From a virus (lineage: Duplodnaviria; Caudoviricetes), in IMG/VR virus record IMGVR_UViG_3300036823_000136, positions 1 to 61,394 of that record: 61,394 nt of DNA; one strand, written 5' to 3'. Numbering within the stretch: the stretch's first letter is position 1; the number at the start of each line of letters is the position of its first letter. Positions 1,744 to 53,533 of the stretch are shown piece after piece. The position numbers and the translations under genes are program-made. Under the pieces are notes generated by a model. The model had not been told where the DNA came from. It ran no database searches and saw nothing but the letters and a program-made list of their open reading frames with translations.

Positions 1744-2031
1744 TTATTTCGCGTGGGCTCTGGCCTTCTTCGCTTCCCAGTCGGCAACCGCGGCGCAAGC
1801 CTCCGCCCGCGATCCGGCGTTGACGTTCTGCTTGCCCGGGAAGTTCGTGTCCCCCGTCGCGCACATGCGCTTCACGACGTTGACCGCGGTGGCGATGGCG
1901 CGCGAGGTGGGCATGCCCTTCTCCTCCAAGTGGACCTTGATCCGCTTGATGAAGCTGGGCAACCCGCCCACGTCGTCGACCCAGTTGAACTCGGTCAGCC
2001 CGCCGTCCCACTCGAAGCCGGCGGGAAAGGG
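1744..2031 (-). CDS. -1 frame extension of the maturation protease gene (NWVDDVGGLP domain)
   Basis: Open -1 frame from slippery C CCT TTC (2025-2031) to stop at 1744; no SD before GTG 1971. Confidence 0.65.
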   Translation of the reverse strand, partial: PFPAGFEWDGGLTEFNWVDDVGGLPSFIKRIKVHLEEKGMPTSRAIATAVNVVKRMCATGDTNFPGKQNVNAGSRAEACAAVADWEAKKARAHAK

Positions 2032-4425: not shown

Positions 4426-4736
4426 GCTTCCTCCCAGCGTCCGTTGCGCACGAAGCCGTGACGGCCACAGGAGCACAGGATCGACGGCTCGACGTGAAGT
4501 GGATCAAGTGAGTGCAGCGTCCACCTTGCACCCGAACTACTGCCCGGTTCGCCGAAGGTCACCGTCCCCGCGCACGGCTCGCCGACGGGGGTGTGGTCTC
4601 CGCCCGCGGCGGGGTGGATGTGGAAGAAGCCGGCCTTCTCGACCTCGCCAGCCCGGAAGATCCGCGCGAAGTGGCCGTCACCCAAATCGATCGCACCTTC
4701 GCCCAGGAGATCGAGCAGGTAGTCCGTATCACTCAC
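4422..4736 (-). CDS. Small Cys/His protein, DUF6527-like
   Basis: C-terminal WTL..PLHVEPSILC-SCGRHGFVRNGRW motif; overlaps portal stop. Confidence 0.6.
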   Translation of the reverse strand: MSDTDYLLDLLGEGAIDLGDGHFARIFRAGEVEKAGFFHIHPAAGGDHTPVGEPCAGTVTFGEPGSSSGARWTLHSLDPLHVEPSILCSCGRHGFVRNGRWEEA

Positions 4737-7351
4737 CGGGGTGCCCTTCGCTCGATCCAAGCTCGCTGGACCTCGACGATACGGTCCCGCTCCGCAGTGG
4801 CGCGCTGGCTCCACGTGCCCGTCCGGCCAGCCGCTTCGTCGAGCCCGGCGAGCACGCGCTCGTGGTGCGCCGCCGGTGAATCCGGCAGGTCGGCCATCAG
4901 CGCGATGTCGTCGGCATCGTCCAGCGCCCAGGCGTAGACGGTGTCGCACATGCAGCCCGCGTGGTCGCCGGGCTTGAGGTGCGTCCCTACCCATTCGGCC
5001 GCTGGCGGGGAGATCAGGGCCGGGTCCTCGAACCCCTCGAACTTGCGGCCGGCCAGGTTCAGGTGAGGCTCGAAGGCGTTGGACCTCGGCGTGATGCCGT
5101 AGCGCCAGGTGAACCCGATCCGCTCCGCGTGGGTGTCAACGGCGCGGAGCAGGTCGCCGCCCAGCGCGATCCCGCCCGGCCCGGCGTGCGGCCCGCCGAT
5201 TTCGGCCAGCGCTTCGCGGATGTCGCCCGGCAGGATCACCGAGTCCGGCACCTCGCCGCGGAGCTGGTCGCCGTGACGGCCGTACATGGCGTCCGTGGCG
5301 CGCGAGCGGAGCGTGCCTTCGAGCTTCTTCCAGGCCGCGGGGATGCGGTCGGTCATGGCCTGGGTGAGCGCGGCCACTGCGGTGAGCGGCAGGCCGACCA
5401 TGCCGGCGACGGTCTTCACCGAGGCCTTGATCGTGGCCGCCGACCACTGCGCGAACTTGCTGGCCAGGTAGGAGAACGCCAGCGTGAGCAGCACGTCCTC
5501 GGTGAGCCCCAGCTCGGTGACGCGCACCTGGCCCAGCGTCCGGCCGGCCAGCGCGGGCGGCACGTCCTTCAGCTCCGCGGCCAGGGCGGTGAACTTCCGG
5601 CCCTGGACCTGGGCCTTGATCTTGGCGCCCGCCTTCTCCAGGGCCCGCTGGAGGTCAGCTTCAGCGGTCGCCCGGATGCGCTCGATGAGGTCGTGATCGA
5701 GGTCGGCCAGCCGATCACCCGTGATGATCTTTACTGAATCGAGTACTCCCTGCGAACCTGCCGCACTTGCGACCCTGGCGCCGGGCGGTGCCGCCTGTGG
5801 AGTTCCCTGGGGCGGCGCGGCCTGACCTGGGCCGACCTGCTTGACCGGCGCGGAGGTGATGACCGGCGGCGTGCCGGGCACGGCGGGCGGCTGGATCGGG
5901 TTGCCGTTGGAGTCCAGGATGCGATCGTTGTTCGGGATGATCGCCTTCACCCCGAGGATCTCCGCGGCGATCTGGGTCAGTGTGTTCGGGTCCGGCCTCG
6001 TCGCCTTGATCATCATGATCTGCTGGAGGTCTTCTTCCTGCGGGGCGTCGTCCTCGCCGAAGCCCTTCGCCGTGCGGTAGGCCTTGAAGCTGATGGCGCC
6101 CCGGTCCATCGCCTGGTCAGCGTCCTGTGAACGGTTCGCGTTCTCCGTCAGGTTGCCCGCGGCGTACCACAGGCGGACGCTCTTGGCCTCCTCCTTGGTC
6201 AGCCCGTAGCCGCCGTCGTCCACCGACAGCATCAGCATGCGGCGGAACCAGGAGTTCGTCAGCGAGTCGACGATCAGCCGGCACGTGGGCTCAAGGTGGT
6301 TCTTGAAGGCCTGGGCATCGATCAGCCACGCCGTCCAGTGGTTCGCGTCCTGGATGCCCCGCATGGCCTGACTCGGCAGGTCGATGCTGTCGCCGACGCG
6401 GTCCAGGTTGCGCGACAGCCGGTTCATCAGCTCGTCGTCGGTCTCCCGGACGAACGGAATGTGCCTGATTTCCTTACCGTCCTCAGCCTCACCCTGGATC
6501 AGGATCGGCACCACGGCGGACGGGTGGCCCTCGTTGTTGATCGGCTGAGTCGCGGCCGTGGTGAAGCCGGACAGGAAGGAGTCGTTCTCCGGGGTCGCGG
6601 TGGGCTCGCCGTCGCGGACCATCGAGCAGCCCGACGGGATGAACAGAATGCCGTTCGAGGCAATGCGGCTCAGGCTCGCGGCCCGGATCTCCCGGCCGGC
6701 CAGCACGATCTCCTCGCACACGTCGAGCAGAGCCCGGAGCGCGGAGTCGGCCAGCTCGTCGTACTCGGGGTGCGGAACCCACAGCCGGATGAGGACTTCG
6801 CCGGAGTCCGGCTTCACCTCGCGGGCGCCGCGGCCCGGAACCTCGATGATCCCCAGTCCCCCGCCGACGGACGGCACGACCTCGCTCGTCGAGCGCACTG
6901 TCCATCGCTCGTCGCCGAAATGGTCCTTGCGCATGTGCAGCCAGCACTCGCCGGCCACGTCGAACCCCTGGACCATCCGGCCGATGAAGCCGTAGCCGTC
7001 CTCCCAGGGAAGCCGCTGGGCACAGTCCACAGCGGCGGCGGCGATGCGCTCATCGACGTAGGCGTGGCCGTCTTCGTCCTTGTCCTGGTCCGGCTCGCCA
7101 GTGAGCACCTTGGGCTCGTCGGCATCCGGCACGACGGCCGCCGCGGTGAACTGGACCTTGGCGATGAGCTGACCCTTCATCCGCAGGGCGCCGCCCAGCT
7201 CGCCGATCGAGTTCCGGTAGTTCCAGGCGAGTGCCTGCCAGGCCATGCGGGTGGCGGAAAGGGTGGCGATGGTCTCCCGGTCGTGCAGGTCGATGACCCG
7301 CCCGGACGCGGTGATGGGCGTCCGGTCCTTGCGTCGACTCCAGAGAGGCAT
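4733..7351 (-). CDS. Portal protein with C-terminal MuF-like head morphogenesis domain
   Basis: WQALAWNY..IGEL and NHWTAW portal-type motifs, Pro/Gln linker, C-terminal PGDHAGCMC. Confidence 0.8.
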   Translation of the reverse strand: MPLWSRRKDRTPITASGRVIDLHDRETIATLSATRMAWQALAWNYRNSIGELGGALRMKGQLIAKVQFTAAAVVPDADEPKVLTGEPDQDKDEDGHAYVDERIAAAAVDCAQRLPWEDGYGFIGRMVQGFDVAGECWLHMRKDHFGDERWTVRSTSEVVPSVGGGLGIIEVPGRGAREVKPDSGEVLIRLWVPHPEYDELADSALRALLDVCEEIVLAGREIRAASLSRIASNGILFIPSGCSMVRDGEPTATPENDSFLSGFTTAATQPINNEGHPSAVVPILIQGEAEDGKEIRHIPFVRETDDELMNRLSRNLDRVGDSIDLPSQAMRGIQDANHWTAWLIDAQAFKNHLEPTCRLIVDSLTNSWFRRMLMLSVDDGGYGLTKEEAKSVRLWYAAGNLTENANRSQDADQAMDRGAISFKAYRTAKGFGEDDAPQEEDLQQIMMIKATRPDPNTLTQIAAEILGVKAIIPNNDRILDSNGNPIQPPAVPGTPPVITSAPVKQVGPGQAAPPQGTPQAAPPGARVASAAGSQGVLDSVKIITGDRLADLDHDLIERIRATAEADLQRALEKAGAKIKAQVQGRKFTALAAELKDVPPALAGRTLGQVRVTELGLTEDVLLTLAFSYLASKFAQWSAATIKASVKTVAGMVGLPLTAVAALTQAMTDRIPAAWKKLEGTLRSRATDAMYGRHGDQLRGEVPDSVILPGDIREALAEIGGPHAGPGGIALGGDLLRAVDTHAERIGFTWRYGITPRSNAFEPHLNLAGRKFEGFEDPALISPPAAEWVGTHLKPGDHAGCMCDTVYAWALDDADDIALMADLPDSPAAHHERVLAGLDEAAGRTGTWSQRATAERDRIVEVQRAWIERRAPR

Positions 7352-7358
7352 TTAACGA

Positions 7359-7655
7359 TCACTCCCTAGTGTCAGCGTGTTCCATCCGATCCACCAGGCC
7401 CGTGATCACCCCGGCTCCAGCTGAGGATGCCAGACCGGCGGCGGCGATGCCCCAGATGCGCGGGGCCACGGCGCGGGCAATCGCGACGCCCATCCCGACC
7501 CAGATGCTCAGGCACCAGGGGCACGTGATCAGCTCCGCGGCCTTGCGATCCCCGTACTTGATGATCAAGTCCTCGCGCTGCTTCTCGAAGATCGTGTCCG
7601 TCTGGAGCAGGCGCACGAGCCGGTACGTGGCGGCGAGGTCTACAGCCAGTTCCAC
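7359..7655 (-). CDS. DUF1360-like membrane protein
   Basis: YRLVRLL..D..F and CPWCLSIW motifs with TM helices. Confidence 0.7.
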   Translation of the reverse strand: MELAVDLAATYRLVRLLQTDTIFEKQREDLIIKYGDRKAAELITCPWCLSIWVGMGVAIARAVAPRIWGIAAAGLASSAGAGVITGLVDRMEHADTRE

Positions 7656-7768
7656 GCCTGCACCGCCCCGATGATCAGGAGCACGAAGGTCATGCCCAGG
7701 ATGAAGCCGGTCCAGCCGGCCCGCCGGATGGCGGTGTCCTCGTCCACCTCGCGTCTGTGGCCACCCAC
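7640..7768 (-). CDS. 42-aa single-TM microprotein
   Basis: MGGHRREVDEDTAIRRAGWTGFILGMTFVLLIIGAVQAWNWL; fills operon gap with GC-rich third positions. Confidence 0.5.
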   Translation of the reverse strand: MGGHRREVDEDTAIRRAGWTGFILGMTFVLLIIGAVQAWNWL

Positions 7769-7774
7769 GCATGA

Positions 7775-7891
7775 TCATCTCCCGTCGTTCTTGCGCTTGC
7801 CGACGATCCCCATGACCCAGCCGGAGTACAGCCACAGGCCGATGGTGAGCACGGCAAAGGCGACGAACCCGACCCACGTCCCGGCGCTCAC
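7775..7891 (-). CDS. 38-aa single-TM microprotein
   Basis: MSAGTWVGFVAFAVLTIGLWLYSGWVMGIVGKRKNDGR; GTGA overlap with upstream gene. Confidence 0.55.
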   Translation of the reverse strand: MSAGTWVGFVAFAVLTIGLWLYSGWVMGIVGKRKNDGR

Positions 7892-8283
7892 GGCCTGCCG
7901 CACAGTTCCGCGGGTGCCGGGCGCTCCTGCACGACCAGCCACAGTCCGGCCTCACGGGCACGGTTGAGCGCGTCGTTCGTACCGCGGGACACGCCCTCGC
8001 CGTAGAGCACGAAGCCCAGGACGATGTCCGGCATGTGGTCCACAAGCAGCTGATTGCGCGCCAGCATCTGGTAGGCCTTCAAGCCCTGCGAGCGGATCAC
8101 GTGCAGGTTGTTGTCCGTCATGTTCTCCCGCCACCACGAGGCCGCGATCTCGTCGGCGCCGGAGGGGCAGTCCCCGACGTACAGCCGCGCGCCCGGGAGG
8201 TCGGGGCCGATGGCCGCCTGGAGCGCGGACCAGACGGCCAGCTTGTCTCCCCAGTGGCGCGAGCCGGTCACCATGATCTTCAC
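7888..8283 (-). CDS. SLOG-family (DUF2493-like) protein
   Basis: VTGSR..W, GDCPSGAD, RNQ and SRGT motifs. Confidence 0.8.
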   Translation of the reverse strand: MKIMVTGSRHWGDKLAVWSALQAAIGPDLPGARLYVGDCPSGADEIAASWWRENMTDNNLHVIRSQGLKAYQMLARNQLLVDHMPDIVLGFVLYGEGVSRGTNDALNRAREAGLWLVVQERPAPAELCGRP

Positions 8284-8618
8284 TGGTCGTCACGTTCGCG
8301 GTCGATGCGGTCGTAGGAGCGTTGCAGCCACTCGATGCGGTCCAGTTCCGCCTGCACGCCCTCCGGCATCGGCGGCGTCTCGCGGCCGTCGAACAGGTGC
8401 TCGAACTCGTGCTCGCGCTGGACCTTGCGCTTGAAGTCGGCGATCGCGCAGAGGATGCCCCAGGTGACGAGCAGGAGGAAGGCGCCGACCACGGTGCCCG
8501 CGGCCACCGCCGTTGGCTCGAACCAGTCAGCGCAGATCGCGTTCAGGGCGTTGATCACCAGGAGGTAGATCAGAATGTCCGGCTCGTGCAGGGACCACCA
8601 GGCCCAGAAGCCCTTCAC
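8280..8618 (-). CDS. Membrane protein
   Basis: Two TM segments; translationally coupled. Confidence 0.65.
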   Translation of the reverse strand: MKGFWAWWSLHEPDILIYLLVINALNAICADWFEPTAVAAGTVVGAFLLLVTWGILCAIADFKRKVQREHEFEHLFDGRETPPMPEGVQAELDRIEWLQRSYDRIDRERDDQ

Positions 8619-9100
8619 GGTTTCGCCGGCCGGGCAGCGGCGGCCACGTCACCGGTGAGCCGTTCGAGCAGCTCCTCCAGGTCGGGAGCCGCGATCTCGA
8701 TGGCGGATCGCACGCTTTCGTCCAGCGCACACCAGGCGCCCACGATGCCTTCGCGCTCGCTGAGCTGTTGCCGGAGGTAGACCGCCATGTCCAGGCACTC
8801 CTCGTACGCGTCCTGGAGCGCGCGGCGGCCGTTGAATGGCTGGAGCCGGGTCCCGTAGCGACGCTCCCCGAGTCGGCCACGAGCAAGCACCTCGTTGGCG
8901 ACGGTGTCGTGGATGAACGGCTGGTCGTCGTGGACGATCGGGAGCGGCTGGTCCTCCGGCTCCGTTTTCGCCCGGCCGACCGGTGTCACGTTGCCGTCCT
9001 CGTCCAGGTCGGCGATCTTGACGAACTCGCCGTCAGCGTTCAGCGCGGCCACGAAGCCGCCGCGCGGCTCCAGGTCGTCTTCTTCCCAGTTCTGGGCCAT
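8615..9100 (-). CDS. Hypothetical protein with possible all-alpha NTP pyrophosphatase-like domain
   Basis: G..RYGT.L...NGR.AL.DAYEE.LD.AVYL motif. Confidence 0.6.
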   Translation of the reverse strand: MAQNWEEDDLEPRGGFVAALNADGEFVKIADLDEDGNVTPVGRAKTEPEDQPLPIVHDDQPFIHDTVANEVLARGRLGERRYGTRLQPFNGRRALQDAYEECLDMAVYLRQQLSEREGIVGAWCALDESVRSAIEIAAPDLEELLERLTGDVAAAARPAKP

Positions 9101-9606
9101 CAGAGTTCCCCGTCCATCGTGATCTCTTCGAGGCGTAGGCCGACGCCGGGCCACACGACCGGCGCGCCCACGCCGTACACCTGCAACGACTGGAGCGTCC
9201 ACGTGCCGCCGATGGTGAACAGTCGCTCGGGCCGGTCGTGGCCGCCCTTGATCTCGCCGCCGACCACCGCGACGCCGCACCCGATAAGCGGGATCTCCGG
9301 AGGGTTCGGGCCCATCCTTTTCGGCAGCAACGAGTCCTCGTAATCCGGGAACATCCGGAACAGCTCGCTGAGATCGAGCTGACCGCGACCGTGCAGCTCC
9401 GCGCCGTAGACCTCCTGGAGCACGGTGACGCCCTCGACGCGCCCGACGATTTCGTTGGCGCCGTCGCTGCGCAGGTCGACGGCGATCACCGGAACCGGCA
9501 TGGCCGGGAAGTGCCGGGGGTCGTCGTCGAACTCCAGGACCCGGCCGTCCTGGGTGGCCACGTTCAGCCGGGCAATGACGCCGCTGAAGCTGGCTGTGCT
9601 GGTCAC
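9100..9606 (-). CDS. Stand-alone protein resembling the first domain of the maturation protease
   Basis: ATQDGRVL..PVPV..EIVGRV..LHGRGQLD mirrors ETADGRYL..PLSV..EVVGKI..WQGRGEVD. Confidence 0.6.
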   Translation of the reverse strand: MTSTASFSGVIARLNVATQDGRVLEFDDDPRHFPAMPVPVIAVDLRSDGANEIVGRVEGVTVLQEVYGAELHGRGQLDLSELFRMFPDYEDSLLPKRMGPNPPEIPLIGCGVAVVGGEIKGGHDRPERLFTIGGTWTLQSLQVYGVGAPVVWPGVGLRLEEITMDGEL

Positions 9607-9926
9607 TGGCCGCCCTCCCGCCGGTTCAGGCGAACTCGGCGGAAGGCCTCGTTCACGGCGCTGACGGCCTGCTCCAGTGACAGCGGCAGCGAGGGCAATG
9701 GCGTGGCCTCCCACTCGGTGATCGGCATCCCGCCGTCGGTCAGGTGTTCGACATCCGCGGGCTCCGTCTTGGGCTTCACCTCGGGGTCGTTCAACGGCAA
9801 GATCTGCGCGTCCACGCGGTCCAAGGTGTCGATGAAGCGCTGAGCCGCGCCGGTGGTGAAGAACGGGCCGTACGCGCTCTGGCCGCCCTTGCCTCCGTAA
9901 CTCACGGCCACCACGTAGCGGATCAC
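9603..9926 (-). CDS. Hypothetical protein
   Basis: Coupled ORF with phage-like codon usage. Confidence 0.6.
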   Translation of the reverse strand: MIRYVVAVSYGGKGGQSAYGPFFTTGAAQRFIDTLDRVDAQILPLNDPEVKPKTEPADVEHLTDGGMPITEWEATPLPSLPLSLEQAVSAVNEAFRRVRLNRREGGQ

Positions 9927-10291
9927 CGGGATGGCCAGGGCGACGTGTCGCGGGCCCAGTTCGGCACCCAGCGCTTGAGCTGGACTCCGCACCCGCACCC
10001 GCCGGACGGAGTGATGATCATCAGCCCGTCCGCGGTGAAGATGTCCTGGCCGACGGCGCGCGCGTGCGGGTTCGGCGGCGTCGTCTGCTCGAAGTCGATG
10101 GCGCTGCTCCAGTGCGGCGCGTCTCCCGAACTGGGCTTCGTCCAGAAGACGTGCATGCCCGTGTCGGTCAGGTAGACCCGGCACAAGCCGCGGGACTTCC
10201 CGGCGGCCGGGTCGTAGACGGTGGCCGGCCAGTACTCGACGTAGACGGTGGACGGCGTGGTGAACGGCTCAGCGGCCGTAGTCTCCGGCAT
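9923..10291 (-). CDS. Hypothetical protein (probably leaderless)
   Basis: ATG 6 nt after TAGACT -10 box; C-terminal GCGCG. Confidence 0.7.
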   Translation of the reverse strand: MPETTAAEPFTTPSTVYVEYWPATVYDPAAGKSRGLCRVYLTDTGMHVFWTKPSSGDAPHWSSAIDFEQTTPPNPHARAVGQDIFTADGLMIITPSGGCGCGVQLKRWVPNWARDTSPWPSR

Positions 10292-10309
10292 GCCGCGAGT
10301 CTAATCCTT

Positions 10310-10326
10310 CCCCCCAAGACGGGGTA
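10310..10326 (-). promoter_or_regulatory. C6-N5-G6 operator 1, upstream of -10 box
   Basis: CCCCCCAAGACGGGGTA. Confidence 0.65.
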
Positions 10327-10337
10327 GAGACGACACC

Positions 10338-10376
10338 AAAAAGCCCCGCCCAATCTCGGAGAGATCGACCGGGGCT
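10338..10376 (-). terminator. Intrinsic terminator
   Basis: AGCCCCG..CGGGGCT stem followed by T5 on - strand. Confidence 0.7.
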
Positions 10377-10473
10377 GCTTGGGTCAGCGGTACTGGGGGC
10401 CGTGTTCGCCCGGTTCGGTGTCCAGGTATCCCTGGTCCTAAGCCTGGCTACTGGGGCCCTTGTTCCCGCCAGC
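10338..10473 (-). ncRNA. Candidate small RNA with two internal 17-nt repeats
   Basis: TTGCCC-N18-TAACCT promoter, no credible ORF, intrinsic terminator at 10338-10376. Confidence 0.5.
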
Positions 10474-10489
10474 CAAGCCAGGTTAGCAC

Positions 10490-10506
10490 GCCCCCAGAAT
10501 GGGGGG
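10490..10506 (-). promoter_or_regulatory. Operator 2 in sRNA promoter
   Basis: GCCCCCAGAATGGGGGG. Confidence 0.7.
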
Positions 10507-13072: not shown

Positions 13073-13687
13073 TCACTTGCACGCCGCCGTCTGGTGCGCG
13101 CCGTACGTGGCCTGGACCTTGGTGAACTGGTCCCCGGCCTTGGACGACAGCTGGCCGATGAGCCCGGTGCACGAGAACGACGTGAAGTCGAGGTACTCCT
13201 GAGCCGACTTCGCCGCTTGCGCGTTCCAGTCCACGCCCAGGCTGTCCACGGCCTGGGTCGCCACGTCCTGCGGGTAGCCGTCGCCCGCCTTCGAGGACAG
13301 CTGTCCGACCAGGCCATCGTGAGAGAAGGCCTTGAACCCCAGGTAGGACTGCGCGGAGTCGCGCGCCTGCTGGACCTGGGGCGGGAACTCCGGCGCCTGG
13401 GTAACCGGCGCGGCGGTGGCGCTGTCGGCGGTCCCCGGGAGCTTGGCCCACTCGCATGTGTAGGGGTCCCAGGCCACCGAGCTGCCGTCGGCGGGCGGCG
13501 TCGGCGCGCCCTTGGGCTCCGGGCAGACGGAGGTGGGCGCGGTGGGCGCCGCCGGGCTCGCGGCCGGAGTGGCGCCGCCCGTCACGCTGATGACGATCCC
13601 GAGGACGACGAGGCCGCCGACAATCGCGCCGGTGATCTTCAGGCCACGGTGCTTCTTCTTGGGCTTCGGCTGGATGGGGTAGGACAT
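13073..13687 (-). CDS. ltp: Ltp-family surface protein (superinfection exclusion type)
   Basis: TM anchor, Pro/Ala linker, two repeats A..SA..YL....FS..GL..QL. Confidence 0.85.
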   Translation of the reverse strand: MSYPIQPKPKKKHRGLKITGAIVGGLVVLGIVISVTGGATPAASPAAPTAPTSVCPEPKGAPTPPADGSSVAWDPYTCEWAKLPGTADSATAAPVTQAPEFPPQVQQARDSAQSYLGFKAFSHDGLVGQLSSKAGDGYPQDVATQAVDSLGVDWNAQAAKSAQEYLDFTSFSCTGLIGQLSSKAGDQFTKVQATYGAHQTAACK

Positions 13688-13776: not shown

Positions 13777-14178
13777 TCAGTGGCGGGCGGGGCGCTTCTC
13801 GCCCTTGAACTCGCGGATGATCTTGACGAGGAAACCGGCCTCGTCCTCCGGAACCAGCGCAAGCACGTCGGCCACGGCCTGCTTGGTGGCCTTGGCCACG
13901 GTCATCCCGTCGAGCATCAGCTCGCGGCGGCGCTCAGCCAGCGCGGCGGCGGCGCGGTCCATGAAGTCGTTCGCGGTGAACTGGCGGGCAGGCCAGGGGC
14001 GCCCGCTCCGGCCACAGTCGAGGCAGTCGATCTGCTCGTGGTCGAGAGCCACGTCCGCTCGGAGCATCGCCTTGCTGCCGGTGAACGCCACGTTGGCGCT
14101 CTTGCACGTGAGGCACGTCCAGTTGCGGATGTCCATCGGGTCGACCATCGATTCGATGCGGATCGTGCTGGTGTTCAT
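13777..14178 (-). CDS. Hypothetical protein with two CxxC motifs
   Basis: CLTC and CLDC; SD AGGAGGG. Confidence 0.7.
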   Translation of the reverse strand: MNTSTIRIESMVDPMDIRNWTCLTCKSANVAFTGSKAMLRADVALDHEQIDCLDCGRSGRPWPARQFTANDFMDRAAAALAERRRELMLDGMTVAKATKQAVADVLALVPEDEAGFLVKIIREFKGEKRPARH

Positions 14179-14223
14179 GGCGGGCCCTCCTGGGCTTCAG
14201 TGTTGGTGACTGGTTCAATCTAT

Positions 14224-14240
14224 CCCCCCATTATGGGGGG
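14224..14240 (-). promoter_or_regulatory. Operator 4 in SigA promoter TTGACA-N18-TAGATT
   Basis: CCCCCCATTATGGGGGG fills the spacer. Confidence 0.85.
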
Positions 14241-14288
14241 TGTCAAGCGATTGGGGCGGGGAGCTTTTCGAGCCCCCCGCCCGGGTTG

Positions 14289-14510
14289 TCAGAAGTCGCT
14301 CTCCTCCAGCTCCGCGACGCTCCACGTGTCGCCGTTGGGCGTGACCCGCCACATCCCCTTTTCCTGCTCGACGTGCTCGACATCGACCGGGGTCGTCTCG
14401 GTGATCAGCTTGTAGATCAAGTCCTTGAAGTCCTCCACCGTCAGCTTGTCCTCGAAGAAGGTGAAGAAGTCGAAGAGCTGGGCGACGTTGAAGTTCTGAG
14501 CTGAGAGCAT
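14289..14510 (-). CDS. Small acidic hypothetical protein
   Basis: SD GGAGG; own promoter and downstream hairpin. Confidence 0.7.
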   Translation of the reverse strand: MLSAQNFNVAQLFDFFTFFEDKLTVEDFKDLIYKLITETTPVDVEHVEQEKGMWRVTPNGDTWSVAELEESDF

Positions 14511-14547
14511 CCGGGGCCTCCGTGGTCTGTGTGTGAACACAGTCTAT

Positions 14548-14564
14548 CCCCCCATTATGGGGGG
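14548..14564 (-). promoter_or_regulatory. Operator 5 in promoter TTGTGT-N18-TAGACT
   Basis: CCCCCCATTATGGGGGG. Confidence 0.8.
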
Positions 14565-14627
14565 ACACAACCCCCTGGGGAGAGAAACTTGTCCGCCGGA
14601 AGGGGGCCAATCGTCGTTTCGGGCTGT

Positions 14628-14644
14628 ACCCCCAAGATGGGGGG
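14628..14644 (+). promoter_or_regulatory. Operator 6 directly upstream of the transfer operon
   Basis: ACCCCCAAGATGGGGGG. Confidence 0.75.
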
Positions 14645-14648
14645 TGAG

Positions 14649-14837
14649 ATGATGAGACGCATGAGACTTCGACTGCTCGTGGCCGGACTGGTCCTCGCGG
14701 GGATCGCCGGCACGCTGGCCGGCCAGTTGCCCCTCGTGGCCGCCGGCCTCATCGTCCTGTACGTCATCTCGATGTTCGTCCGGGACCACCTCCGCCGAAA
14801 GCGCGGCGGCTGGTCCGGCGGACGCGACCGGTACTGA
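14649..14837 (+). CDS. Small 2-TM membrane protein (Spd-like); exact start uncertain
   Basis: Hydrophobic hairpin with basic tail; first gene of the + strand operon. Confidence 0.65.
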   Translation: MMRRMRLRLLVAGLVLAGIAGTLAGQLPLVAAGLIVLYVISMFVRDHLRRKRGGWSGGRDRY

Positions 14838-16531
14838 AGGGATCGACATGAACCGCCTGCCTGCCCTCTCCGTCGCCCGGCTCCGCATCTTCGCCGGGCT
14901 CACCATCGCCGCCGCCGCCGCGATCAGCTTCGAGTCGATCCGGCACCTCGCCGTCATCGGCGGCTTCGGGACGCTGGCCATCCTCTTCCCGCTCACCCTC
15001 GACGCGGTCGCCGCGTACGGCATGGACCTGTGGGTCCGCCGGTCCCCCGCCGCGCGCCAGGCGAAGTGGCTCGCGCTGTCGGCCATCTTCGGGTCGCTCG
15101 TCGCGAACGTCGTGGACCACTGGCTCACCCAGCGCGCGGTCCTGGGCGCGGTCCTGGGCGCGGTCCCGCCGGGCATGCTGGCCGCGCTGCTCGCCGTCGC
15201 GCACAAGCACGCGAGCGGTACCGAGGACCAAGCGGTCCCGTTCGACCCGGCGGTCCGGGACGCGGTCTGGTCCGCGCTGCCGCAAGCGGACCGTCGCGTG
15301 GTCCCGCCGCCGGACCGCTACGTGGTACCGAGCGAAGTTCTCGCGCTCGCGGTACCAACCGTTGGACCGCTGGACGCAATGGCGGACTTCCGGTCCCACG
15401 AAGACAAGTTCTGGTCCAAGGTAGAAATGGGCGGTCCGGAGGAGTGTTGGCCGTTCGTCGGGTCCCGGACCCCTGAGGGGTACGGGAAGTTCACGATCGG
15501 GGACCGCACGTACCGGGCCCACCGCATCGCCTGGTCCATCGCTACTAACCAGGTGGTCTCGGGGGATCTGATGGTTCGCCATCTCAAGTGCGACAACCCG
15601 CCGTGCTGCAACCCCGCACACCTGGCTGAAGGCACCGCGGCTGATAACGCGGCCGATCGCGTCCAACGTCTCGCGAAGCTGGAGGTCGTCCAGTCGCTCG
15701 ACGCCAAAATCATGGAGCGGAGCACCCGCCGGACCAGCGCCGCGCGGACCCCCAATCCCGCGGTCCGGCGGACCACCTCCGCCACGGTCCACAGCGACAG
15801 CGACATCGTCACCTGGATCAAGGACCAGCCCAGCCCCACGAAGCGCGCCGTCATGGCGAAGTACTCGGTCGGCTCCGGCCGCGCGCTCCGTCTCATCTCG
15901 CAGGCCAAGGAGGTCTGATCATGGCCAAGCAGCCAGGCGGACTGAACATCGTCCGTGACGTTCTCTGGGTGAAGTTCGCCCTGTGGATCGGCGCCAAGCT
16001 CGGTCGAACCGGGCGGCGTCTCGTGTTCCGCTGGCGTCGCGTCCTCTCGCCGGTCATCTTCGCGACGCTCCTGTGGGCGGTCGCGGCCATCTGGAACTTG
16101 ACCTTCCCCGAGTGGTGCTGGCTCGCGCTCGTGATCCCGGCCGCCGGTGGGACCGTCGCGTGGTTCGGACCGGTGCTGTCGGAACGGTGGTCCCTCATCG
16201 TCACGAAGCTGGTCCCGACCGGACTGGACCGCGGACGGTCCGGGGTGCTGGACCGCCTGATCGAGCGGGCCTACTTCGCCGGTCTCAGTACCACCATCGG
16301 CGGGTACCTGTTCATCCGGTCCGGCTGGGGCGGATCGGACCTCACGCTGTGGTGGTGGCGCGTGGGACTGGTCCTGTTCGGCGGCGCGTGGTGGTACCAC
16401 CGCCGGGTCCGGATGGCTGGGCGCGGGGACCGCGTCGCGCGGCGCTGGGGCCGGATCAACGAGGGCCGGACCAACAGCCGGCTGGCGCCGCTGATCGGGT
16501 CCAAACCCGTCGAGGTTCACGGCCGCGGTCC
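14690..16531. repeat. Dense cluster of GGWCC (plus GGTACC) motifs overlaid on coding sequence
   Basis: About 46 GGACC/GGTCC by manual count, about 40 per kb in the cores versus about 7 in nt 1-1000. Confidence 0.75.
14848..15918 (+). CDS. SpdA/DUF2637-like membrane protein with in-frame HNH domain and C-terminal HTH-like domain
   Basis: SF..I.HLA, FPL.LD, S..ANV and AVPP TM motifs; FWSKV..CW..GYG..AHR..RH.CDNPPCCNPAHL..GT..DN; C-terminal PTKRAVMAKYSVGSGRALRL. Confidence 0.8.
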   Translation: MNRLPALSVARLRIFAGLTIAAAAAISFESIRHLAVIGGFGTLAILFPLTLDAVAAYGMDLWVRRSPAARQAKWLALSAIFGSLVANVVDHWLTQRAVLGAVLGAVPPGMLAALLAVAHKHASGTEDQAVPFDPAVRDAVWSALPQADRRVVPPPDRYVVPSEVLALAVPTVGPLDAMADFRSHEDKFWSKVEMGGPEECWPFVGSRTPEGYGKFTIGDRTYRAHRIAWSIATNQVVSGDLMVRHLKCDNPPCCNPAHLAEGTAADNAADRVQRLAKLEVVQSLDAKIMERSTRRTSAARTPNPAVRRTTSATVHSDSDIVTWIKDQPSPTKRAVMAKYSVGSGRALRLISQAKEV

Positions 16532-17840
16532 GGTGACGGTCATGAAGATCAAGCTCGCGGAGGCTCTCACCCTCGCGGACATGTCTCGTCTCGTCGAGCC
16601 GCTCGCGAGCTACTACGGGATTCGGCCGCGGGCGATCAAGCCGCGCGAGGACCACGGCAACGCCCGGTACGTCTGGCTCACTTTCCTGCCGACCGACCCG
16701 TGGAAGCACGAGCTGCCGCACCCGGCGCCAGCTGTCGGCTCGATCTCGATCGCCAAGACGAAGGGGAAGATCCTCGTCGGGATCAAGGCCGACGGCGAAG
16801 AGCAGTCGTGGATCGTGCAGCACGCGGGCCTGTACGGCAAGACGCGGTCCGGAAAGTCGGGATTGATCCACTCCCTGCTGATGTGGATCTCCGCCTACAC
16901 GGACGCGATCGCCGTCGGCATCGACATGGCCGGCGGAGCCACGCTGGGCGCCTGGCAGCCGATGTTCGCGCGGCCGATCGCCACGAACCTCGACGAGGCG
17001 ATCGTGCTGCTGGAGCGCGTGCTCGCATTCATCCAGGTCAGGGAGCGTGCGATCGGCGCCGACGACTTCGAGGACGACATCTTCGAGCCGTCCGACGAGT
17101 TCCCGTGGTTGTTCCTGGTCATCGACGAGTTCCCGAACCTCTTCACCGCGGCGAAGGCGGCCGGGCAGATGGGCGATGGGCCGAACGCGAAGAGCTACTT
17201 CAAGTACGTCGTGGGCCTGCTCGACCAGATCGCCAAGCAGGCGGCCAAGACGGGGACGATCTTGGTTGAGGGTGCCCAGAACCCGACGAAGGACGACAAC
17301 GGCTCGAAGGAGTTCCAGGCCCAGCTCCGTTCGACCTTCGGCTTGGGGCTCGACGAATTGCAGTCGCGCAACCTGTGGGGCGTCAAAGAGCGCCTGGGCT
17401 GGACCGGCACTGACCTGGCCAAAGGCCAGTACCGGCTGCACGACGACGACCACACCGTCCCCGAGGTCGCCAAGGGGTACTGGGTCCCGAAGCACCAGCG
17501 CAAGAAGCAGGCCGCCGCCGCCGCGAAGCTGCGCAAGTGCGCGGAGCCGACGGCCTGGGCGGCGCTGATGGGCGTGGACGCGCCGGTCATCGACGCCATC
17601 AGCATCTCCAGCGCGCCGGCCGACCGCGTGCTGGCCGCCCTGCTCGACGGGCCGATGAAGGTCGTTCCCGAGCTGGTCGACGCCTCCGGGCTCAGCAAGG
17701 CCCAGGTGTACCGCCGGCTCAACGGCCACGGCGAGGCTGGCCTGGTCCACCGGCTGGAGGACTACCGCTACCAGCTCACGGACGCGGGCCGGGCGTTCCT
17801 GCGCGGCGAGGACCCGGGCACCTGGAAGCGAGTCTCATGA
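15921..17840 (+). CDS. traB: TraB-like FtsK/SpoIIIE DNA translocase
   Basis: N-terminal TM helices, Walker A GKTRSGKS, Walker B FLVIDE, C-terminal winged helix (ELVDASGLSKAQVYRRL..GLV). Confidence 0.85.
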   Translation: MAKQPGGLNIVRDVLWVKFALWIGAKLGRTGRRLVFRWRRVLSPVIFATLLWAVAAIWNLTFPEWCWLALVIPAAGGTVAWFGPVLSERWSLIVTKLVPTGLDRGRSGVLDRLIERAYFAGLSTTIGGYLFIRSGWGGSDLTLWWWRVGLVLFGGAWWYHRRVRMAGRGDRVARRWGRINEGRTNSRLAPLIGSKPVEVHGRGPVTVMKIKLAEALTLADMSRLVEPLASYYGIRPRAIKPREDHGNARYVWLTFLPTDPWKHELPHPAPAVGSISIAKTKGKILVGIKADGEEQSWIVQHAGLYGKTRSGKSGLIHSLLMWISAYTDAIAVGIDMAGGATLGAWQPMFARPIATNLDEAIVLLERVLAFIQVRERAIGADDFEDDIFEPSDEFPWLFLVIDEFPNLFTAAKAAGQMGDGPNAKSYFKYVVGLLDQIAKQAAKTGTILVEGAQNPTKDDNGSKEFQAQLRSTFGLGLDELQSRNLWGVKERLGWTGTDLAKGQYRLHDDDHTVPEVAKGYWVPKHQRKKQAAAAAKLRKCAEPTAWAALMGVDAPVIDAISISSAPADRVLAALLDGPMKVVPELVDASGLSKAQVYRRLNGHGEAGLVHRLEDYRYQLTDAGRAFLRGEDPGTWKRVS

Positions 17841-17918
17841 TCTCGTCTCGTCCGGGACGCACGTAACGCGCAGACGGGCGAGAATCCCCTGAGAATATCG
17901 CAAAAGTGAGACGGTCTA

Positions 17919-17935
17919 ACCCCCATTACGGGGGG
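17919..17935. promoter_or_regulatory. Operator 7 within an extended palindrome
   Basis: TCTAACCCCC-ATTACG-GGGGGTTAGA. Confidence 0.7.
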
Positions 17936-17953
17936 TTAGATTGGGACAAAACA

Positions 17954-17989
17954 AGGCCCCCGGAGCGGATATTCTCGCTCCGGGGGCCT
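17954..17989. terminator. Terminator between convergent units
   Basis: 14-bp perfect stem AGGCCCCCGGAGCG. Confidence 0.75.
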
Positions 17990-17996
17990 GTTCTCT

Positions 17997-18013
17997 ACCC
18001 TCAACTTGGGGGT
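17997..18013. promoter_or_regulatory. Operator 8 (degenerate)
   Basis: ACCCTCAACTTGGGGGT. Confidence 0.5.
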
Positions 18014-18540
18014 CAGGTGGTCCTGATCAGCTTTGGGCGGCCGTCGTAGGCGTTCGCCAGGGCGGCCACCGCGCGCTCCCGGCTCTCCGCCACGTCAGCC
18101 CGCGGCTTGACCTGGCCGGCCCACGCGTACCCGACGGACCACGCGCGGCCGACCGGCTCGACGTAGCCGATCGGCCGGTCGTCGAGCACGATCCACCAGC
18201 GGCCCGGCGTGCGCTCGCCCGCGGGTGACACCCGGGTTCGGCGGAGCCCGCGCTTGCGGAGCCCCTTCCAGCGCCGGGTCTCCGCGGACAGCGCGCCGGC
18301 CTGGAGACCGGAGCAGCTCGCGCAGTGGATGCGCAGGTTGTCCAGCGTGTACTTCCCGCCGCGGATACCCGGCACGATGCGGTCACAGATCATCGTGGTG
18401 TAGGTGACGATGGTCAGGCACTCCCAGCACGACGCGGTGGTGCCGTCGCCGTCGCGCTCCAGCAACGCCTGCTTGCGCTTGCGTCGTTGGCTCGCCGACC
18501 CCCGCGAGTTCGAGTTCGAGGTTCCGCGCGGTCCACTCAC
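18013..18540 (-). CDS. HNH-type endonuclease
   Basis: CWEC..DRIVP..GG.Y..DNL..HCASC. Confidence 0.75.
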   Translation of the reverse strand: MSGPRGTSNSNSRGSASQRRKRKQALLERDGDGTTASCWECLTIVTYTTMICDRIVPGIRGGKYTLDNLRIHCASCSGLQAGALSAETRRWKGLRKRGLRRTRVSPAGERTPGRWWIVLDDRPIGYVEPVGRAWSVGYAWAGQVKPRADVAESRERAVAALANAYDGRPKLIRTT

Positions 18541-20302: not shown

Positions 20303-20770
20303 CTATTCGATACCGAGCAGGCGTCGGTTCTCGATCACGCGCTGAACCATCGGCGTGTCCTCGCGGAAGATCCTGCCCGCCGGCGAGCGCCACCGGCCGT
20401 CGGCGAGCCGAGCCCACTCGCTCGGGTGACGAATGTCCGACCGCACGGTGCGGTCGCGCCGCCGCGGTGGCTGGCGAAGCTCGGTGTCGGGATCGCCGGG
20501 CACCACGTCGGTGAGTGCGTCCAGGTCGTAGACCTCGCCCTTCCAGGCGGCGTAGCTGGCCAGCTGGACCTCGGTGAAGGCGCACTGGATGGCGGAGAGC
20601 AGCTCCCGCTGGTTCCGCGCCACGGCCGCCCAGCCGCGGGCCTGGGGCGAGGACACGCGCAGGCCTCCATCCACCTGCTCCACGACGAGGGCCACCCGGC
20701 GCGTCTGGTGCGCGATCGCGGGCGGCCCCATCACCTCTTCGGTGACCTGGCGGCGGAGGGGGCTCGTCAT
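20303..20770 (-). CDS. Hypothetical protein, possibly HicB-like N-terminal fold
   Basis: LVVEQVDGGLRVSSPQARGWAAVARNQRELL; coupled to terL. Confidence 0.55.
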   Translation of the reverse strand: MTSPLRRQVTEEVMGPPAIAHQTRRVALVVEQVDGGLRVSSPQARGWAAVARNQRELLSAIQCAFTEVQLASYAAWKGEVYDLDALTDVVPGDPDTELRQPPRRRDRTVRSDIRHPSEWARLADGRWRSPAGRIFREDTPMVQRVIENRRLLGIE

Positions 20771-22560
20771 CGGAACCGCCGGGACTCGCCTTGGCGGCGG
20801 ATCGTGTTGCCCAGGCCGACTGACGGGCGCGTCGGCAGCGGCTGGACCGGCCGCGCGGGCGCCGGGTTGGCGGTGGCCGCGTCCGTCTTGGACAGCTCGG
20901 TGAGCCCGTGCACGTAGGCGTCCATCCGGTCCGGGCTGTCGAGCCCCTCCTTCCAGCTGACCAGCTGGTGCTGAAGCTCGGGGAACAGGCCGACGTGGTG
21001 CACCTTGCCGTACTCGTGCAGCGGCGCCACCATCTGCGCGCGGAACGTCTTCGTGCCCTTCGGCGTGATCGGCCGGATCGGAATACCGGTCTCTGGCAGC
21101 GCGAGCACCTTCGGCACCAGCGGCCACAGGGCGGCCAGGGACTTCTCCATGGCCAGAACCTCCTCCGGCTCCGCGTCGTCGCGCACCAGCGCGCGTGCGG
21201 CGACGTGGATCAGCGCTTCGTCGGCCACGCGGGCGCGCTTGCCCGGCATCTTCTTGAACGGGTCCAGCTCGTGCAGCTTGACCGCGTCACGGCGGATGTC
21301 CTTCCAGGCTTGCCGGCCGCTCTTGCGGAGCTGGGACAGCGACCGCTCGTAGCGGATGGCGGTGGCGTCGTGGCGGAGCGCGGCGAGGAAGGCCCGGCGG
21401 AACCACTGGCCGACGGTCATGTGCCCGGACTCGTCAGCGAGCAGGTAGAAGTGCTCGTCCACGCCGCGGGCCAAGGTGACGATGCCAGCCTCGTCGCCGT
21501 CGCCCTCGTTGTCCGCAGGGTCCACGAAGACCTCCGTGCGGAGCAGCTCCGGCGCGACCGGCACGCGGTGGTAGGCGATCCAGGCCAGCTGGAACACGCC
21601 ACCGGCAGGTGGGTGCGGGTCGGCATCGTAGAGCGCGGCCCAGACCCACTCGCCAACCCGGCGCCGGATATCATCCCAATCCGAGGGCTTCCGACCGCGC
21701 GTGCTCACGAGGTACTCGCCGGCCTTACGCCCCAGCGGGTCGTTGCTCTTGGCGATCGCGGGGATAACGAGCTGGTGGAAGTCCGGGCGCTGGCTCTGCT
21801 CGTCCTGCGCAATGAGCCGGCCGATCAGGTCGTCCTCGTGCCAGCGGGTGCCGATGACCACCAGGAGCGCGCCGGGCGACAGCCGGGTGGACGCCACCGA
21901 GAGGTACCAATCCCACATCAGCTGCCGCTGTTGCGGGCTCCCGGCCTGCTGGGGTCCCTTCACCGCGTCGTCGATGATCAGCACGTCGGCAGATCGACCC
22001 GTGAGCGCGCCACCCACGCCGACCGCGACCATGCCGCCGTTCCGCCGGCCGGGCGTGTCGGTCAGGGACCAGTTCGTCTGCTGCGCGCGGTCCGGGTCCA
22101 GGATCAGTCCCAGCTGGTCTTCCTGGTGCGCGTAGTGCCGGTCGCCCTTGTAGCCGGCGCCGTAGGTCTCGATCGACTGGCGGACCGCGAGCGTGGAGCG
22201 TCCGGCCACGGACTGCTCATAGGAGGCGACGACGATCCGTCGCGTCGGGTCGCGCATCAGGAGCCACAGCGGGACCGCGGTGCCCATGCGCATCGTCTTG
22301 CCCTCCTGAGGAGGGGTGGAGATGATCCATCGGCGCTGGAAGCCGGAGTCCGCGGCGATCGCCACCTGATCGAGCGCGGTCATCATCTTCGTCTGGACGG
22401 TGTCGGGCTGGATGAACTTGGCGATGTGGCCGGGCGAGGGGAACCGCTCCAGGGCCTTCCGTCGACGGAGGATGCGATCGAGCCGGAGCTGAGCGAGGCG
22501 CCGCTCGCCGGGGTTCAGCTCGTCGAGCTTGCGGCGTACCTCCAACTCCAGGTCGATCAC
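20767..22560 (-). CDS. terL: Terminase large subunit
   Basis: PPQEGKT Walker A, LIIDD Walker B, GTRWH, VFVDPA and SPDRMDA nuclease motifs. Confidence 0.92.
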   Translation of the reverse strand: MIDLELEVRRKLDELNPGERRLAQLRLDRILRRRKALERFPSPGHIAKFIQPDTVQTKMMTALDQVAIAADSGFQRRWIISTPPQEGKTMRMGTAVPLWLLMRDPTRRIVVASYEQSVAGRSTLAVRQSIETYGAGYKGDRHYAHQEDQLGLILDPDRAQQTNWSLTDTPGRRNGGMVAVGVGGALTGRSADVLIIDDAVKGPQQAGSPQQRQLMWDWYLSVASTRLSPGALLVVIGTRWHEDDLIGRLIAQDEQSQRPDFHQLVIPAIAKSNDPLGRKAGEYLVSTRGRKPSDWDDIRRRVGEWVWAALYDADPHPPAGGVFQLAWIAYHRVPVAPELLRTEVFVDPADNEGDGDEAGIVTLARGVDEHFYLLADESGHMTVGQWFRRAFLAALRHDATAIRYERSLSQLRKSGRQAWKDIRRDAVKLHELDPFKKMPGKRARVADEALIHVAARALVRDDAEPEEVLAMEKSLAALWPLVPKVLALPETGIPIRPITPKGTKTFRAQMVAPLHEYGKVHHVGLFPELQHQLVSWKEGLDSPDRMDAYVHGLTELSKTDAATANPAPARPVQPLPTRPSVGLGNTIRRQGESRRFR

Positions 22561-23099
22561 CCGACCTCCCCGGACTCGACGAGTTCGCCGTCCACGATGG
22601 TCGGATCGAGCTGGAGAACACCCGCTTCGAGCAGCGCGGGGACCTGAGAACTCCGGTCCTCGATGAGACTCAGCACCTGAGAAACCGTCTCGTCGATGCG
22701 CTGGTTCGAGATCTGGATCTTCAGCTCCGCGTTGAGCCCGCACAGGTTGGCGATCCGGTCGACCACCCCGAGGATCACGCGCGCGGCCTTCTCGTCGCCG
22801 TTGAGCGCCTTCTCCATGAACACCTGCTTGAGCTGCCGCAACGTCTCCAGCTCGTTCGCCAGCTGGTTCTGCCGGAGCGAGAGATCGCCCTCCATCGTCC
22901 GGGCCAGCTCTTCGTTGTAGAGCTTCGAGGCCTGGGGCTCCGTCATCGCCAGCTCTTTACCGGCGTCGGTGACGGTGTAGCCCTGGGCGACCAGGCGGAA
23001 CAGCCGGGTTGCCTTGACCCTCGTCTCCGCGATCGTGGCGCGTGGCGCGCTGGCTTGCCGCGGGTTCACCGCTCGCAGGTTGGACTTCCTCGGTGGCAC
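22557..23099 (-). CDS. terS: Terminase small subunit
   Basis: N-terminal HTH-like segment; coupled immediately upstream of terL. Confidence 0.75.
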   Translation of the reverse strand: MPPRKSNLRAVNPRQASAPRATIAETRVKATRLFRLVAQGYTVTDAGKELAMTEPQASKLYNEELARTMEGDLSLRQNQLANELETLRQLKQVFMEKALNGDEKAARVILGVVDRIANLCGLNAELKIQISNQRIDETVSQVLSLIEDRSSQVPALLEAGVLQLDPTIVDGELVESGEVG

Positions 23100-53397: not shown

Positions 53398-53481
53398 GTT
53401 CGGCCCCTTCCATCTCGTCTCGGTGACGGGGGCCGTCCGGTGCTTAGAGCGCCAGCGCGAGGGGCTTGGAGCCGAAACGCG

Positions 53482-53521
53482 CAAGTGCCCCGTCTTCGCC
53501 GGAGCGTAGACGGGGCACTTG
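53482..53521. terminator. Strong hairpin upstream of the capsid leader
   Basis: 14-bp stem CAAGTGCCCCGTCT. Confidence 0.6.
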
Positions 53522-53533
53522 ATCGAACGCGCG

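Follow-up and report, generated by a model that had tools for sequence, protein, structure and literature searches.

A GGWCC array kept by selection runs through a membrane-protein and TraB-like translocase module of a tailed actinophage

Why would a virus write the same five-letter DNA word, GGWCC (GGACC or GGTCC), dozens of times into three consecutive genes, and what would read it? The question is raised by positions 14690..16531 of IMGVR_UViG_3300036823_000136, a viral record of 61,394 bp (68.3% G+C, CheckV completeness 99%) that is used here at its full length and called the window. The array extends, in both orientations, through a small gene (g1), a membrane-protein gene (g2) and the first ~200 codons of a gene for a TraB/FtsK-like translocase (the pump, encoded by a gene called traB below). 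An earlier note on this DNA had described the array and read it as a loading or tethering array for a helix-turn-helix (HTH) of the membrane protein or for TraB.

GGWCC starts 46 times between 14690 and 16527, with 22 copies in 15020-15540, 15 in 16145-16531, and gaps at 15538-15730 (the core of an HNH endonuclease cassette, described below) and 15827-16149. By gene, there are 3 sites in g1, 28 in g2 and 15 in the first 720 nt of traB. On the plus strand 26 copies read GGTCC and 20 GGACC, with no strand polarity, and each of the three reading frames contains sites. From the rest of the genome, 6.9 copies would be expected in this stretch (6.7-fold enrichment, Poisson p 8e-23). GGWCC is the most enriched 5-mer of the stretch relative to the rest of the genome and, in an unbiased scan, no other 5-mer anywhere in the window is as strongly clustered locally (42 in 1.5 kb compared to 5.5 expected). 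In 1-kb bins, 28 copies lie in 15001-16000 and 17 in 16001-17000; the other 60 bins hold 0-8 each, with 7 in nt 1-1000. GGTACC is also enriched in the array stretch (5 copies compared to 0.59 expected, 8.4-fold). GGSCC (5 vs 7.6) and GGCC (20 vs 24.4) show no enrichment there, so the enrichment is specific. Across the whole genome the word is ordinary (263 copies vs 257 +/- 14 in dinucleotide shuffles), and the DNA outside the array holds slightly fewer copies than expected (217 vs 253, third-order Markov estimate). The array stops at traB codon ~202, 5' of the Walker A motif (G306-S313), and the window has no GGWCC excess in traB beyond that point (6 vs 7.8). The manual counts of the earlier note were all reproduced, as were its descriptions of both orientations, several reading frames and thinning before the ATPase domain. 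No 10-11 bp helical period was found among the sites, and none of them abut (5-bp spacing) in the window.

To separate the DNA word from the proteins that it encodes, we used codon-shuffle tests in which the three protein sequences were fixed, with 2000 shuffles for each of two schemes. Permuting synonymous codons within each gene gave 21.0 +/- 3.3 copies of GGWCC (maximum 32), and resampling codons from the phage's own usage gave 16.6 +/- 3.3 (maximum 28). In neither scheme did any of the 2000 shuffles reach 46. Sites are often built from locally unusual or rare codons (GGA, GGT, CGG, GGG). The shuffles still exceed the background of ~7, with 17-21 sites, and the amino-acid sequences are therefore biased to site-compatible residue pairs (AV-P/L/R, W-S, R-T/S, D-R and G-P). 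This bias is strongest in the g2 linker, as expected from the earlier proposal that the word shapes the linker sequence. Amino-acid content fails to account for the array.

Comparison with the closest relative of the module (L001), which is 89.6% identical to the window in DNA over the module and pump, gives the same picture. Substitutions affect 6 of 200 site positions and 157 of 1485 other module positions (odds ratio 0.26, Fisher p 2e-4), so that sites change at a rate 3.5 times lower than their surroundings. Thirty-six of the 40 sites in the alignment are retained, compared to 68% of random 5-mers. We conclude that the GGWCC sites are kept by selection at the DNA level across g1, g2 and the membrane part of the pump gene. 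The array shows clearly how selection on DNA can leave a visible mark on a disordered protein linker. As GGUCC and GGACC could pair in mRNA, RNA structure was also considered as a cause and rejected: folding z-scores of the array (-0.9 and -1.9; control stretch, +0.7) are unremarkable.

All three genes under the array lie on the plus strand. The first, g1 (14652..14837), encodes a small protein of ~61 amino acids (aa) with two hydrophobic segments; its start codon is uncertain, the reading frame being open from 14529. The second, g2 (14848..15918), encodes a 356-aa membrane protein with a four-helix hydrophobic N-terminal domain (aa 9-122), a long linker and a C-terminal three-helix HTH (15796..15912; helices at aa 317-326, 332-339 and 343-355) whose third helix carries GSGRALRL. 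The structure model leaves the linker disordered at low confidence (whole-model pLDDT, the predicted local distance difference test, 62) and places the HTH with pLDDT 96-97. From its relatives, g2 appears to be a DUF2637-type membrane protein: DUF2637 matches were obtained for the g2 homologues of L022 (115.6 bits), L011 (36.2), L021 (36.1) and L020 (23.4), with a cut-off of 22.8, and g2 of the window aligns with 46% identity to the L011 protein and 33% to that of L021. The label spd, given to this gene in the earlier note, stands by analogy only. A Foldseek search of the g2 model against the PDB gave nothing at E <= 0.001, only generic helical bundles, and a sequence-profile search of the PDB with g2 gave nothing meaningful.

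The g2 linker is interrupted, in frame, by an HNH endonuclease cassette (15373..15702, plus strand, aa ~176-285; PHROG E 5e-24, Pfam HNH_3 slightly below cut-off). The first half of the cassette bears array sites and its catalytic core bears none. The cassette recurs in L013 (~4480-4800) but has no counterpart in L001 and L012, the nearest relatives of these two, and looks like a mobile cassette moving among these phages at one spot.

The third gene (15921..17840) encodes the pump, a translocase of 639 aa. Two hydrophobic stretches (aa 40-63 and 68-86; 19-residue windows, Kyte-Doolittle >= 1.6) form a putative N-terminal anchor. Walker A is followed by Walker B at D402-E403, and G306, G311-K312-S313 and D402-E403 are invariant in the relatives. 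A profile built from nine relatives matches the FtsK motor structures 2iuu/2ius (E 1.4e-9) and EssC, and the pump matches the PHROG FtsK/SpoIIIE-like family (E 1.8e-11); against Pfam PF01580 it scores 16.2 bits, below the cut-off of 24. At the C-terminus lies a winged HTH (aa 563-628, 17607..17804, plus strand) with the recognition helix SKAQVYRRL. This domain resembles PF25213 (aa 563-628, E 3.5e-6; 27.3 bits, below the cut-off of 35), and the profile matches the winged-helix chains 4hob, 4wcg and 2lvs (E 3e-4 to 2e-3). Against NCBIfam NF041214, the plasmid TraB equivalog, the pump scores 30.7 bits with a cut-off of 800, and it is therefore TraB-like rather than a TraB equivalog. Its nearest plasmid relatives are 11 Streptomyces records and one Kitasatospora record, at 27-34% identity over 25-46% of the protein. 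A G+C-rich hairpin of 14 pairs (17954..17989), terminator-like on the minus strand, follows traB and closes the module.

Scans of IMG/VR and of metagenome contigs yielded 24 distinct loci with the same three-gene module. Same-contig duplicates (L007, L008, L014-L016, L018, L028, L029, L031, L033-L039, L043 and L044) were excluded from the tallies, as were L002 and L006, which miss the 5' part of the module, and the distant L025-L027. Apart from L001, whose pump is 90% identical to that of the window, the loci show 37-56% pump identity. An array lies at the same place in 22 of the 24. It is built of GGWCC in 16 (strong in 12, mainly in traB in 2, weak in 2) and of another word in 6; the remaining 2 have none in the module. 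In the unbiased scan, GGWCC is the top clustered 5-mer of L001, L005, L009-L013, L017, L018 (the L010 contig) and L023, with 37-54 sites in 1.5 kb where 4-12 are expected; in every case the cluster spans g1, g2 and the beginning of traB. L024, L030 and L032 were added as strong arrays by module-versus-rest counts.

Codon permutation gave consistent results in the relatives. The g2 genes of 10 strong-array loci hold 22-31 sites compared to 10-14 expected (0/500 permutations each), and the first 720 nt of traB, in the 9 of these loci that have the gene, hold 11-23 compared to 6-9 (0-8 of 500). No excess was found in the rest of traB in these loci, and L030 and L032 follow the same pattern. Where arrays are stronger, symmetrising the sites gives a wider consensus, CCGGWCCGG. 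This is mostly an effect of sites that directly adjoin one another: 5 bp is the commonest spacing in relatives, with 47 pairs when 9 loci are pooled. Across nine array lineages, 49 codon columns of the traB 5' region carry a site in at least one lineage, of which 19 are private and 3 common to all nine. Density, not only position, is conserved, and sites turn over across longer distances. L003/L004 encode the same conserved traB 5' peptides with just 3-4 sites, as opposed to 11-23 in the array lineages.

Two further features were seen at these loci. In L003/L004 a weaker, displaced cluster of GGWCC, GGGACC and CGGGAC occupies ~7000-10500, over the 3' part of traB and two downstream minus-strand genes. 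L030 (2750-3187) and L032 (2738-3169) have an extra conserved open reading frame of 143-145 aa between g1 and g2.

Megablast of 14000-18500 against phage and plasmid collections gave no match, and tblastn against phages gave none for the pump at E 1e-5 or for g2 (L001 form) at E 1e-3. A pump alignment run against the genomes of 185,579 species (one per species) produced 20 pattern matches, none of them confirmed, and gave neither prophage copies nor a hint of the host. The distant metagenomic relatives L025-L027 (20-23% identity) have no array at the pump gene, and the same is true of two isolated Streptomyces phages (L048 and L049), where the FtsK-like genes of such isolated phages are remote relatives of the pump (22-24% identity). 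L048 (Streptomyces phage Wofford, 47% G+C) does have a GGACC/GGTCC cluster at 1301-2800 (13 vs 1.2) in its tRNA/tail-fibre region, 2-3 kb upstream of the FtsK-like gene, which may be unrelated. Among the papers listed for DUF2637 or for FtsK in actinobacteriophages, none dealt with such arrays.

The word itself is not fixed. L021 uses (c)AGTGCCA, with 18 AGTGCC in the module compared to 0.3 expected (codon permutation: 11 vs 2.1 in g2, 7 vs 1.2 in traB), and L046 uses GGTGCCA(G), with 23 GTGCCA compared to 1.4. GGTACC is the word of L047 (45 GGTAC vs 1.6; 19 GGTACC vs 0.12), and L045 has a GGTACC-type word, CCGGTACC (33 GGTAC vs 6). L042/L022 have GGTAC in the traB 5' region only (18 vs 4.5). 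Among the GGWCC loci, L041 and L040 carry it mainly in traB (L041 traB 5', 25 vs 8.4), and L019 and L020 have a weak excess limited to traB 5' (14 vs 5.2 and 13 vs 5.7, respectively). All words are variants of GG-(W / TA / TG)-CC and occur in both orientations everywhere. As AGTGCCA and GGTGCCA are non-palindromic, the palindromy of GGWCC is probably incidental. The pump tree places L021 next to L040/L041 as their sister (support 82/81) and gathers the words with a two-base centre in a clade of their own, a topology that implies about four word switches or losses.

Word switching offers a way to ask which protein reads the word. For every locus where they are present, we compiled two helices: helix three of the g2 HTH and the recognition helix in the winged HTH of the pump. 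The g2 helix reads GS.RAL[RK][LI] in 14 of the 16 GGWCC loci; the exceptions are L023 (K for R) and the weak L019 (GSGKANDAL). It reads GT.RA[GT].IAR in the four GGTAC(C) loci, GSSRATKIA in L046, GSQKASELL in L021 and GAPRWTKI in the array-less L003/L004. As the earlier note had suggested might be found, homologous modules thus carry different words (6/24 loci) that sort with the g2 helix. The pump helix behaves differently: SRATVYRKL is identical in L021 (AGTGCCA) and L041 (GGWCC), and SRATVFRRL is identical in L042/L022 (GGTAC) and L040 (GGWCC). At similar divergence of the ATPase core, g2 HTHs from the GGWCC class are 53-54% identical to each other, and those from different word classes 18-29%; for the pump winged HTH the corresponding identities are 36-46% and 37-54%. 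In L032 the g2 membrane domain is swapped for the L003 type, which has 0 sites; the HTH reads GSGRALRL and the array persists elsewhere in the module. The word tracks the g2 HTH helix better than the TraB winged helix, and this sequence co-variation favours g2 as the candidate reader.

On balance, we favour the view that the array is a cis-acting docking site of the phage's own DNA-translocation module, resembling the clt and sps sites of Streptomyces conjugation and read most likely by g2. The C-terminal HTH of g2 would bind the array sites, each probably a single 5-7 bp site in either orientation. Binding would coat ~1.9 kb of phage DNA and hold it at the membrane beside the pump. The hexameric FtsK-type pump, encoded immediately downstream, would then load on phage DNA rather than host DNA, with the array serving as a clt-like self-recognition label. 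Thereafter the pump may move DNA between hyphal compartments or cells, or act in membrane positioning or exclusion. Of the loading or tethering array put forward in the earlier note, a selected array in a conserved place and co-variation in favour of g2 are borne out by the data; binding we infer. A bolder extension, which we regard as speculative and would ourselves bet against, is that integrase-less soil actinophages use an adaptor, a pump and an array of ~50 sites, the 'self' label, to pass naked genomes between cells or compartments without virions, spreading both as virus and as conjugative element.

Several observations weigh against the docking-site reading. For specific recognition by an HTH, a 5-bp core is short, and the bases next to it show a weak preference in the window (C at -1 in 45% of sites). 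The g2 protein of the window has no match to Pfam DUF2637 (PF10935) at E <= 0.01. The co-variation rests on few independent switches (~4) and on related sequences, and it has exceptions: the window and L041 share GGWCC at 28% g2 HTH identity, and L045 and L047 share GGTACC at 35%. In L041, L040 and L042 the array is in traB, not in g2. GGWCC also remains in excess in the traB 5' region of L021 and L045, which use another main word (11 vs 5-6), and of L019, L020 and L041, which have no clear g2 array; over these five loci the residual is 11-25 compared to 5-8 expected. This residue could reflect a second reader such as TraB, or be a relic of an earlier word.

Nearly all annotated phage genes are on the minus strand, among which g1-g2-traB forms a rare plus-strand module between the genes for large terminase (20767-22743) and portal (4733-7351). 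Other structural genes encode a capsid protease/portal-like fusion (1995-4187), tape measure (43496-46819), major tail protein (50436-51581) and major head protein (51661-53673); further phage genes in the window encode a DnaB-like helicase, an O-like replication initiator (32066-32995, minus strand), SSB, Erf and an endolysin. The closest terminase relatives are from Rhodococcus, Gordonia and Mycobacterium phages (31-36% identity). Searches of the window, a record rated 99% complete, for a tyrosine integrase, a serine recombinase and ParB found none. This structural and replication gene set, and the lack of integrase, recombinase and ParB, mark the soil-derived element as a tailed actinophage rather than a plasmid. 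Either the phage is virulent or it persists by an unrecognised route.

Three other features of the window should be mentioned. On the strand opposite to the module, ~1 kb upstream of it, a gene (13073-13687, minus strand) encodes an Ltp-type surface lipoprotein (PF07553 E 3e-25; PHROG 'superinfection exclusion' E 8e-41). The palindrome CCCCC-N5-GGGGG, mostly as CCCCCATTATGGGGG or CCCCCAAGATGGGGG, occurs 10 times in the window compared to 0.33 expected (10491, 12926, 14225, 14549, 14629, 17920, 23192, 54308, 57538 and 60947). Two copies lie shortly 5' of g1 and one shortly 3' of traB, and it is probably a phage operator, promoter or hairpin motif bracketing the module. Inside the O-like initiator gene, inverted repeats GGGTCTC-aattt-GAGACCCC occur in 3-4 copies at 32642-32733; by analogy with lambda, these iteron-like repeats are probably a replication origin within the initiator gene. 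The L032 module is enriched for the same word as these putative iterons (GAGACC/GGTCTC, 13 vs 1.4).

The alternative that survives best, although we consider it unlikely, is that classical clt logic applies: the TraB-like pump would recognise the sites through its own winged HTH, and g2 would have no recognition role. The pump does have such a domain (aa 563-628), and only the traB 5' region bears sites in nearly all lineages, including L041, L042, L019 and L020, which lack a g2 array. TraB of pSVH1 recognises repeated words, 8 bp in length, via helix alpha3, as cited in the excerpted text of PMC3583192 and PMC4447253. However, the identical pump helices found with different words, and the failure of winged-HTH identity to separate word classes, argue against it. 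The layout does as well: the phage arrays have 46-57 sites in both orientations, compared to 3-10 repeats for the known clt in the excerpts of PMC3583192 and 10 copies in 150 bp at a plasmid comparator (L051).

An improbable second alternative is that some other factor reads the sites, for packaging (pac), partition or replication or as a host nucleoid protein, and that the position of the module is incidental. The placement of the module between the terminase and portal genes is in keeping with this idea. The pac sites of phage P1 contain arrays of short methylatable words, which can be counted in its favour as well. However, the array follows g1-g2-traB in 22 of 24 loci whatever the flanks, and L003/L004, without a module array, must nonetheless package their DNA. 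The likely origin lies elsewhere (32642-32733) and no ParB was detected in the window. Furthermore, the word varies within one phage family, which points to a co-evolving phage-encoded reader.

We see very little prospect for a third explanation, in which the sites belong to a restriction-modification system and are retained as a decoy or as a switch under methylation control. The earlier note had raised methylation control in view of the AvaII/SinI site. GGWCC and GGTACC, which we take to be AvaII/SinI-type and KpnI-type sites, respectively, are palindromic. The phage encodes a DNA methyltransferase-like protein (55878-56636, minus strand; phrog_363 E 1e-26), and GGWCC is mildly depleted outside the array. 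However, the words that sister lineages carry at this place, AGTGCCA and GGTGCCA, are not palindromes and occur in both orientations, the methyltransferase-like protein has no Pfam match to indicate its specificity, and concentrated restriction sites would harm the phage. The idea of methylation control is not supported by these lineages. Finally, the view that the array merely follows from protein sequence, codon usage or mRNA structure and has no role at the DNA level is largely refuted: the proteins are rich in site-compatible pairs and mRNA pairing is conceivable, but the shuffles, the rare codons, the few sites in the L003/L004 traB peptides and the RNA folding scores all contradict it.

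If the docking interpretation is correct, the cis-site logic of clt and sps in Streptomyces conjugation also operates in tailed phages, and in an extreme form, with ~2 kb of coding DNA carrying a second, protein-binding message. GGWCC, GGTACC, GGTGCCA and AGTGCCA would then form a natural specificity series, each with a variant HTH helix, making the identity of the reader and the evolution of its specificity directly testable. The array would also open a way to study the FtsK-like translocases, so far unexplained, that have been annotated in Streptomyces phages, and would bear on whether phages move DNA between cells without particles.

Short words that choose or orient DNA for an FtsK-family pump are familiar from the KOPS (FtsK-orienting polar sequences) of FtsK and the SRS (SpoIIIE recognition sequences) of SpoIIIE. 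Those are strand-polarised 8-bp words, spread chromosome-wide and read by the C-terminal winged-helix domain of the pump, whereas the phage array crowds its words into 1.9 kb and shows no strand polarity (26 vs 20). A binding array inside a coding sequence of the system that uses it is known from lambda-type origins, where 3-4 iterons of ~19 bp lie inside the initiator gene O. There the function is replication initiation, in contrast to the translocase docking proposed here.

The closest parallels are with the transfer systems of Streptomyces, where TraB and Spd proteins transfer plasmid DNA between compartments or cells (excerpts of PMC4447253) and where plasmid-phages are mentioned (excerpts of PMC4170104). 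In the available excerpts of PMC4447253 and PMC3583192, TraB/TraA proteins bind repeated 5-9 bp words in clt; PMC3583192 describes 3-10 such repeats, confined to 50-175 bp and placed at the 3' end of the tra gene or beyond it. As in clt, the phage word is short, repeated and beside or overlapping the gene of a membrane FtsK-type double-stranded DNA translocase with a C-terminal winged HTH, and the word differs between elements, in clt plasmids and the phage family alike. Our scan recovered a classical clt-like cluster as a positive control in one of three Streptomyces plasmid loci. In L051 (Streptomyces sp. 11-1-2 plasmid, 5716-5864), ten (C)GGAACA, five direct then five inverted, directly follow a traB-like gene; nothing clear was found in L050 and L052. 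Compared to the excerpted clt descriptions, the phage array is some 5-20 times larger than clt/sps sites, with 46 copies (39-57 in strong-array relatives) over 1.7-1.9 kb. Its sites, which point either way, are written into coding sequence: the 5' side of the pump gene and the two genes that precede it. The carrier is a tailed phage without integrase, and co-variation points to the neighbouring membrane protein as candidate reader.

SpdA2 of pIJ101-type plasmids offers a second likeness. According to the excerpts of PMC4170104, it binds a 12-bp palindrome present in 2-3 copies inside its own gene, including a variant with one extra central base. A word inside the coding sequence of the transfer or spread protein that recognises it, imprinting a peptide motif, is what the phage would show on a larger scale, with 28 of the 46 sites within the gene of the candidate reader. 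The variant with an extra central base is comparable to GGWCC and GGTACC here. The phage differs in using a 5-bp core 46 times, and g2, with 356 aa and a C-terminal HTH, is unlike the SpdA proteins described there (117-163 aa, N-terminal DNA-binding region), so the two are likened by features and not by homology. Relative to the known clt and sps sites, what is new in the phage array is its scale, its 5'-side coding position, its likely reader and its tailed-phage carrier.

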